Shown: positions 43,918 through 44,085 of the stretch, one piece after another
Layout of the letters: every line of letters starts with the position of its first letter
Numbering within the stretch: the stretch's first letter is position 1
Origin: Candidatus Nanopelagicales bacterium
GTDB lineage: Bacteria > Actinomycetota > Actinomycetes > S36-B12 > UBA10799
Direction: 5' to 3'
Length of the DNA stretch: 64,000 nucleotides
Assembly: GCA_018003655.1 (NCBI GenBank)
Contig: JAGNDY010000002.1
Span: forward strand, 926 to 64,925
Notes under the pieces: generated by a model
Database searches by the model: none
Told to the model about the DNA's origin: nothing
What the model saw: only the letters and a program-made list of their open reading frames with translations
Position numbers and translations under genes: made by a program

Positions 43918-44008
43918 ATTTGACTCCCATCAAGTCGTTGATCGATCGTAGGGGCAAGTGCACTACGGGGGCCCGGTCACGGGTAGATTGTGCGGGCAGC
44001 ACAACCGG

Positions 44009-44085
44009 GCCCTCGTAATCCAACCGGCAGAGATAGGCGACTCAAAATCGTCCCAGTGTGGGTTCGACTCCCACCGAGGGCACCA
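44009..44085 (+). tRNA. tRNA with anticodon CAA (Leu by anticodon) and an atypical 5-nt variable loop
   Basis: Hand-folded cloverleaf. Acceptor stem 44009-15/44075-81, and U8. D-arm 44018-34 with loop AACCGGCAG. Anticodon stem 44036-40/44048-52, loop CUCAAAA with CAA at 44043-45. Variable loop CCAGU. T-arm GUGGG-UUCGACU-CCCAC. A73 and an encoded CCA at 44083-85. Confidence 0.6.

Follow-up and report, generated by a model that had tools for sequence, protein, structure and literature searches.

The best-described counterpart of the element considered here is the transfer RNA (tRNA) for leucine with anticodon CAA of Streptomyces coelicolor, a "type I" tRNA with a variable loop of only 5 nucleotides (nt) (Fan, Huang, Ji and Wang, Nucleic Acids Res 2019, PMC6614811). 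We have analysed a 64-kb stretch of DNA (64,000 nt, contig JAGNDY010000002.1, hereafter the window) from a Candidatus Nanopelagicales bacterium, in which positions 44009-44085 encode a tRNA with the same anticodon and an equally short variable loop. The S. coelicolor tRNA-Leu(CAA) is leucylated in vitro by ScoLeuRS, the single leucyl-tRNA synthetase (LeuRS) of that organism, with a kcat/Km of 6.25 s-1 uM-1, about half the value of 14.2 found for the long UAA isoacceptor (PMC6614811). Its identity elements are U8-A14 and C74, while A73 is dispensable, and 5 nt is the minimum variable loop for efficient leucylation (PMC6614811). Charging requires the leucine-specific domain of the Streptomyces LeuRS, and the E. 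coli LeuRS is unable to perform it (PMC6614811). Attempts to knock out the gene failed, and bacterial type I tRNA-Leu was described as rare and centred on Streptomyces (PMC6614811).

A second group of counterparts is found in mycobacteria. The tRNAscan-SE sets of Mycobacterium tuberculosis H37Rv and M. smegmatis contain one tRNA-Leu gene per anticodon (PMC11541572 source data), which leaves the short tRNA as their only CAA isoacceptor. The mycobacterial CAA and UAA tRNAs are 77 nt long, the CAG, GAG and UAG tRNAs are long-armed and measure 86-89 nt, and long variable loops are present in M. tuberculosis Leu-2, -3 and -5 only (PMC11541572). In M. tuberculosis, 3'-OH tRNA-seq picked up all 45 tRNAs (PMC11541572). 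According to the original prediction for our locus, bacteria are not expected to have class I tRNAs with a Leu anticodon. This generalization has a documented exception in Actinomycetota (PMC6614811, PMC11541572). The review "The tRNA identity landscape" (PMC9976931) makes no mention of Streptomyces or of tRNA-Leu with a short variable loop.

A short leucine tRNA gene and its conservation

ARAGORN detected a single tRNA gene in the whole window, on the forward strand at 44009-44085, and called it tRNA-Leu with the anticodon caa at tRNA position 35. The Rfam tRNA model RF00005 matched the same gene with 49.7 bits (gathering score 29), covering model positions 1-71 of 71 and keeping the CAA register. 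The complete tRNA that had been read by hand, with its CAA anticodon, U8, U33, A73, T-arm and CCA, was thus recovered by both programs. The gene is 77 nt long, including the encoded CCA. Its acceptor stem is GCCCUCG/CGAGGGC, followed by U8 and A9. The D-arm, AUCC-AACCGGCAG-AGAU, carries a Leu-type D-loop (44022-44030; A14, A15, G18 and G19) on a stem closed by a C13.A22 mismatch. In the anticodon arm, GGCGA-CUCAAAA-UCGUC, the anticodon CAA (44043-44045), which reads UUG, stands between U33 and A37. The T-arm, GUGGG-UUCGACU-CCCAC, has U54, U55, C56 and A58, and the 3' end consists of A73 at 44082 and the CCA at 44083-44085. The variable loop (44053-44057, tRNA positions 44-48) is CCAGU, as had been predicted; at 5 nt it is far from the variable stem-loop of more than 10 nt by which class II tRNA-Leu is recognized.

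The body of this tRNA is nevertheless that of a leucine tRNA. All the features described for the S. coelicolor type I tRNA are in place (U8-A14, G18G19 with U55C56, U54-A58, nucleotide 48 and C74), and U48 is able to form the A15-U48 tertiary pair, an identity feature of E. coli tRNA-Leu. A likeness of the D-loop to that of tRNA-Leu had been proposed, and alignment bore this out: the D-loop core AAYYGGCAGA is common to the window tRNA and the long genes for tRNA-Leu in M. tuberculosis and M. smegmatis. Over its full length the window tRNA is identical to the M. tuberculosis H37Rv tRNA-Leu(CAA) at 64/77 positions and to that of M. smegmatis at 60/77.

The sequence is strongly conserved among the nearest relatives. 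It is identical in seven independent assemblies (L005-L010 and L216); six of these contigs also encode an identical PdtaR, the product of a neighbouring gene described below, and the seventh is a metagenome contig. A metagenome scan with the tRNA pattern returned 7 loci. In an Actinomycetota metagenome-assembled genome (MAG; L131) and five metagenome relatives (L211, L212, L213, L215 and L217), the sole difference in the tRNA is a compensatory swap of C2-G71 to G2-C71, giving 75/77 identity between the window and L131. Across 17 short homologues, double compensatory changes were found in 14 of the 21 stem pairs, the variable loop is 5 nt in every case, and the only stem pair that is sometimes unpaired is 31-39, which closes the anticodon loop. 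On comparison of these sequences, the compensatory changes are the signature of purifying selection on the cloverleaf fold. One further contig of the window lineage (L214, WBZT01021378.1) has T in place of G71, giving a C2.U71 acceptor mismatch, with an otherwise identical leader; either a sequencing error or a rare polymorphism might explain this.

Gene, fold, homology, synteny and covariation are direct observations. Taken together with the literature, they make us highly confident that this chromosomal segment encodes a functional type I tRNA-Leu(CAA), vertically inherited in part of Actinomycetota and charged by LeuRS, and that an inverted repeat found upstream of it is a peculiarity of the lineage. 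Of the three possibilities originally raised, a Leu tRNA without its variable arm stands in the form of a functional oddity. Charging and its kinetics and the failed knock-out were shown in S. coelicolor, and expression is likewise known from the literature; we infer by analogy that these properties extend to the window organism. Its LeuRS would charge the short tRNA with leucine, neither reading the anticodon nor needing a long arm, and would recognize instead the Leu-type core, namely U8-A14, the D-loop with G18G19, nucleotide 48 and the 3' ACCA end. The charged tRNA would then decode UUG as leucine in the normal way. UUG accounts for 69 of the 329 Leu codons (21%) in eight Pfam-supported conserved neighbour genes, and a UUG decoder is therefore needed. 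This tRNA is probably the sole UUG decoder of the genome.

The pdtaR locus across Actinomycetota

Upstream of the tRNA, on the reverse strand, lie ndh, encoding a type NDH-2 enzyme (42445-43917), and a gene for a pdtaR-like ANTAR response regulator (41849-42448), both assigned by Pfam. They overlap by 4 base pairs (bp) (42445-42448), and both diverge from the tRNA gene, in keeping with the arrangement originally described. The overlap suggests one operon with translational coupling. To place the tRNA in a wider context, 80 loci were fetched from named genomes through the PdtaR protein, among the matches listed, and their tRNAs were called by ARAGORN. The closest PdtaR matches among those listed came from the Actinomycetota MAG L131 and a Candidatus Nanopelagicales MAG, the best being 68% identical. 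In 57 of the 80 loci the pdtaR homologue has a tRNA-Leu(CAA) as its neighbour, mostly no more than a few hundred bases away (for example L133 6878-6963, L176 6860-6942 and L165 6824-6898, among loci L131-L193), whereas none was found at those of the 80 loci whose PdtaR match covered the receiver domain alone. The recurrence of this neighbourhood across the phylum indicates that the window gene occupies the ancestral position for its tRNA.

Both classes of tRNA occur at this position. The short form (74-77 nt) was found in 17 of the 57 pdtaR-adjacent genes, and its carriers include the best match, Actinomycetota MAG L131, as well as Nanopelagicales, Streptomonospora, Georgenia, Demequinaceae and Bifidobacteriaceae. 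The long form (82-88 nt, with a variable region of 13-15 nt) was found in the other 40, which include Janibacter, Ornithinimicrobium, Microbacteriaceae, Rhodoluna and Micromonospora. Five rows with an apparent variable length of 0, which arose from a GTTCGA within the variable arm, were set aside as parsing artefacts. This distribution suggests that the short type I form is present in many actinobacterial lineages beyond Streptomyces, a point that we do not press as a claim. It had been argued originally that a normal long-arm tRNA-Leu at this site in relatives would make the window gene a recent deletion or an assembly error. The more distant relatives do carry the long form, but the closest ones carry the short form, and the short form in the window was therefore inherited and did not arise by a local accident.

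The long and short forms differ by more than the deletion of a variable arm, since position 9 and the D-stem are changed as well. Over the acceptor, anticodon and T arms, the long form of L176 and the short form of M. tuberculosis are 92% identical, and the differences between the two are essentially confined to position 9, the D-stem and the variable region. Judged from these sequences, the similarity suggests that the class was switched in place and that the gene was not replaced. The pdtaR locus, with its long forms, short forms and near-intermediates, could serve as a natural series in which to study how the class of a tRNA can change while its identity is kept.

The arrangement in the window differs from that of its relatives in orientation. 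In L131 the gene order is efp-nusB-tRNA-ndh-pdtaR on one strand. The six closest relatives that share the tRNA (L131, L211, L212, L213, L215 and L217) all have it behind nusB, which indicates that, relative to them, the tRNA gene is inverted in the window lineage (43964-44212, compared with L131 1100-2503). The window lineage and L131 have ndh and pdtaR joined in one unit; most other Actinomycetota examined have no intervening ndh, and their pdtaR abuts the tRNA directly. The organism has a GC content of 63%, and the neighbours are housekeeping genes: polA, the pdtaR-type regulator, ndh, a TAP-like hydrolase, efp, an M24 peptidase, aroB and aroK.

In the window, as in L005, L006, L008, L009 and L010, the hydrolase gene separates the tRNA from nusB. 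It is missing from L007 (1809-2401), where the 3' end of the tRNA is 17 bp from the nusB stop. A mechanically derived open reading frame (ORF) of 623 amino acids (43990-45861, forward strand) spans the whole tRNA gene, so the real start of the hydrolase must be further downstream; gene callers give products of 447, 517 or 550 amino acids in the sister contigs. Automatic annotation of the hydrolase could therefore wrongly overlap the tRNA.

The inverted repeat upstream of the tRNA

The leader of the tRNA gene contains the complementarity that had first drawn attention to it: GGGCCCGGT (43969-43977) pairs with ACCGGGCCC (44004-44012), around an inner palindrome TTGTGC-GGGCA-GCACAA (43988-43993 and 43999-44004, forward strand). 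The outer helix in fact extends to 14 bp with one G.U pair. Its 5' arm is TACGGGGGCCCGGT (43964-43977, forward strand), and its 3' arm, ACCGGGCCCTCGTA (44004-44017, forward strand), consists of 5 nt of leader and tRNA positions 1-9. This hairpin dominates the minimum free energy (MFE) fold of the region, and the folding z-score of the region as a whole is only -1.9. One could imagine a regulatory unit in which a long precursor forms the 14-bp hairpin, the 5' strand of the acceptor stem is trapped, and maturation becomes conditional or is coupled to ndh-pdtaR. We consider this unlikely. In its favour, the helix exceeds in length those of 99.9% of shuffled leaders, an RNA-binding regulator of the ANTAR kind is encoded next to it, and the 5' arm is unchanged in every window-lineage contig that includes the leader (L005, L007 and L214). 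These leaders are identical throughout, however, and with no covariation to assess they are uninformative on selection. The six closest relatives that carry the same tRNA have leaders unrelated to that of the window, and the hairpin is absent from all of them. Pairing between acceptor and leader is also not distinctive as such: in MFE folds of leader plus tRNA, about 40% of the other actinobacterial loci have at least 4 acceptor nucleotides paired to the leader, with no motif in common, and such folds are therefore common in GC-rich leaders. In addition, a stable GC-rich trap would presumably be costly to the cell if, as is probable, this tRNA is its only UUG decoder.

A permissive Rfam scan of 43800-44300 on both strands found no family for the hairpin, nor any that could be linked to the adjacent ANTAR regulator, and only the tRNA matched above its gathering score. 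Two other matches in this interval were far below gathering (22.9 versus 65.7, and 11.8 versus 45). The first of these, an antisense match to the Plastid-ycf2 5'UTR RNA over 44009-44083 on the reverse strand (22.9 bits), is almost certainly spurious. The notion that the segment is itself a tRNA-like regulatory element found no support either.

The likely position of the promoter is also relevant to the fate of the hairpin. The sole upstream block common to the window and to the otherwise unrelated leaders of its six relatives is ACGG(T)GTA[AGC]ATT, which contains a TANNNT box. In the window this box reads TAGATT (43985-43990, forward strand), and the motif is conserved in all seven leaders. 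It lies inside the hairpin loop, and the inner palindrome (43988-44004) overlaps both the end of the box and the presumed start site. If TAGATT acts as a -10 element, transcription would start near 43997, and the 5' arm of the hairpin (43964-43977) would consequently lie upstream of the start and outside the precursor. The inverted repeat would then span the promoter region, its 5' arm most likely not being transcribed together with the tRNA, and the hairpin is probably not part of the tRNA precursor. Of the sequestering leader hairpin that had been proposed, the complementarity in the DNA is thus real, but it is not conserved and is probably in part upstream of the transcription start. A terminator scan of 43600-44500 gave two weak terminator-like sites on the minus strand.

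The repeat appears to be a real but lineage-specific DNA palindrome, possibly tied to the inversion of the tRNA gene. We looked by eye for an older copy of the tRNA in the opposite orientation, or for an inversion scar, as the source of the 5' arm; the similarity to the reverse complement ends after about 18 nt, and no partner repeat was seen by eye at the other end of the inverted unit. It is conceivable, if rather far-fetched, that a small lineage-specific inversion of the tRNA gene created the 14-bp GC-rich repeat and with it a processing switch, should transcription start upstream of 43964. In that event the maturation of the probable sole UUG decoder would be conditional on the opening or cleavage of the leader hairpin, possibly in coordination with the divergent ndh-pdtaR operon.

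Several observations weigh against our preferred reading of an ordinary, functional tRNA-Leu(CAA) with an incidental repeat upstream, and should be stated together. A helix of this length with the 5' strand of the acceptor stem arose in just 6 of 5000 dinucleotide-shuffled leaders (0.12%) and is thus unlikely to be a product of chance. A scan of 43600-44500 with the sigma-70 consensus detected no promoter. No LeuRS was identified in the window, where polA is the only one of the four ORFs of at least 750 amino acids to have been assigned. A second, long tRNA-Leu(CAA) may also be encoded elsewhere in the genome. We nevertheless retain it, given the fold, the covariation and the conserved position described above.

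Origin, leucine identity and known counterparts

The same tRNA scaffold occurs widely in phages, which raises the possibility that the window gene was recently acquired from a phage or another mobile element. A BLAST search against phage genomes found 54 phage records with genes of 72-78 nt, annotated as tRNA-Leu, that align with the window tRNA over its full length (for example L001 300-374, L002 301-376, L003 299-375, and L004 218-294 and 301-378), and the tRNA-Leu(CAA) of a Corynebacterium phage is identical to it at 57/77 positions. The hosts of the scaffold-bearing phages include Lactobacillus, Bacillus, Pseudomonas and cyanobacteria, in addition to actinobacteria. The scaffold is present in more than 120 IMG/VR contigs, and a short tRNA-Leu(TAG) is known from a cluster of mycobacterial tRNA genes (PMC6582537), which may likewise be counted in favour of such an origin. 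The closest matches of the window tRNA, however, are chromosomal orthologues (75/77 and 64/77) and not phage genes. Its flanks are housekeeping genes, with no integrase or phage gene in the annotated neighbourhood, and the position next to pdtaR is conserved across the phylum. Recent acquisition therefore seems very unlikely to us.

The phage genes are informative on amino acid identity. If the scaffold confers leucine identity independently of the anticodon, it should be combined with Leu anticodons alone. We searched IMG/VR with an anticodon-blind scaffold pattern made up of the D-loop, variable loop and T stem (loci L011-L130). Among the matches listed, 119 of 119 phage tRNAs have Leu anticodons: UAA in 67 (68 with L074), CAA in 23, UAG in 21, GAG in 6 and CAG in 1. 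The tRNA of L074 (9483-9559, minus strand; IMGVR_UViG_3300025872_000040) was called "tRNA-Stop(tta)" by ARAGORN and was considered as a suppressor. This candidate was rejected: the shifted call is a one-base register artefact of a weak anticodon stem (3/5 pairs), and in the register of the family the anticodon is TAA (Leu).

A tRNA-Leu pseudogene in decay, or an artefact of assembly, with a recently lost variable arm was the other form in which a Leu tRNA lacking its variable arm had been envisaged, and we regard it as most improbable. The idea draws on the long tRNA-Leu(CAA) (82-88 nt) found at the same pdtaR-adjacent site in many more distant Actinomycetota, and on the close resemblance of the L176 long form to the M. 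tuberculosis short form (92% identity outside the D-stem and variable region), which shows the two classes to be related by descent. An identical tRNA in seven assemblies, the compensatory 2-71 swap and 14 covarying pairs out of 21 speak against decay and against an assembly error, as do the intact tertiary and identity positions and the encoded CCA. A recent deletion would not account for the additional differences between short and long forms at position 9 and in the D-stem. M. tuberculosis and M. smegmatis, moreover, have no CAA isoacceptor other than the short form, which could not be deleted in S. coelicolor (PMC6614811).

Charging with an amino acid other than leucine, with UUG recoded or deliberately mistranslated, was suggested by the combination of a class I shape with a Leu anticodon and has a parallel of sorts in the anticodon-identity mismatches known elsewhere, for example in nematode nev-tRNAs (PMC3333845), but it can hardly be upheld in view of the Leu-like body (class II-type D-loop, U8-A14, A15/U48, A73 and C74), the leucylation of the S. 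coelicolor homologue by LeuRS (PMC6614811), the use of UUG for 21% of Leu codons in conserved housekeeping genes, and the exclusively Leu anticodons of the 119 listed phage tRNAs, where another identity would predict the anticodons of that other amino acid.

With regard to annotation, our findings imply that a Leu anticodon on a class I tRNA, in Actinomycetota or in a phage, is no reason to label the gene a pseudogene or a sign of recoding. The window tRNA itself is the expected UUG decoder of its bacterial group and matters little on its own.

How the locus relates to the known leucine tRNAs can be set out from the most distant to the nearest. Animal mitochondrial tRNA-Leu(UUR) is likewise a type I molecule whose variable loop is short, but it belongs to an unrelated lineage with identity rules of its own and is not charged by ScoLeuRS (PMC6614811). 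The phage tRNAs, such as those of Corynebacterium phage StAB, Rhodococcus phage Francesca, Lactobacillus phage ATCC 8014-B2 and Pseudomonas phage vB_PseuGesM_254, share the full-length scaffold of the window tRNA. They differ from it in residing in phage genomes, often in tRNA clusters, in carrying any of the five Leu anticodons, and in having some hosts outside Actinomycetota. In the literature searched we found no paper on this phage family or its charging; since the E. coli LeuRS fails on the S. coelicolor short form, one may ask how the phage tRNAs are charged in non-actinobacterial hosts. Class II tRNA-Leu, as in E. coli and in the mycobacterial CAG, GAG and UAG isoacceptors, has the same identity, A73 and the D-loop architecture AAYYGGYAGA with a non-Watson-Crick 13-22 pair, while its variable stem-loop is 13-17 nt in place of 5 nt, its D-stem is different, and it has G9 where the window tRNA has A9.

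The S. coelicolor tRNA-Leu(CAA) is much closer. It too is actinobacterial and chromosomal, with CAA, a 5-nt variable loop, U8-A14, G18G19, A73 and CCA, a likeness drawn from its described features; its variable loop is ACAGC where that of the window is CCAGU. The S. coelicolor tRNA is known to coexist with class II tRNA-Leu isoacceptors. The set of class I Leu isoacceptors differs between actinobacterial lineages: among the readers of UUR codons, CAA and UAA are both short in mycobacteria, while in S. coelicolor the UAA tRNA is long and only the CAA tRNA is short.

The M. tuberculosis tRNA-Leu(CAA), also 77 nt long, shares with the window an identical acceptor stem, variable loop (CCAGU) and T stem. 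The sequences of the D-stem and anticodon stem are changed, in a compensatory manner. We take the M. tuberculosis gene (H37Rv 1828012-1828088) to adjoin pdtaR (Rv1626) as well; in the window, unlike the mycobacterial arrangement, ndh stands between the tRNA and pdtaR. On the strength of its sequence, the window tRNA is an orthologue of the tRNA-Leu(CAA) of the M. tuberculosis and S. coelicolor type, a molecule that is already known and ordinary for its phylum.

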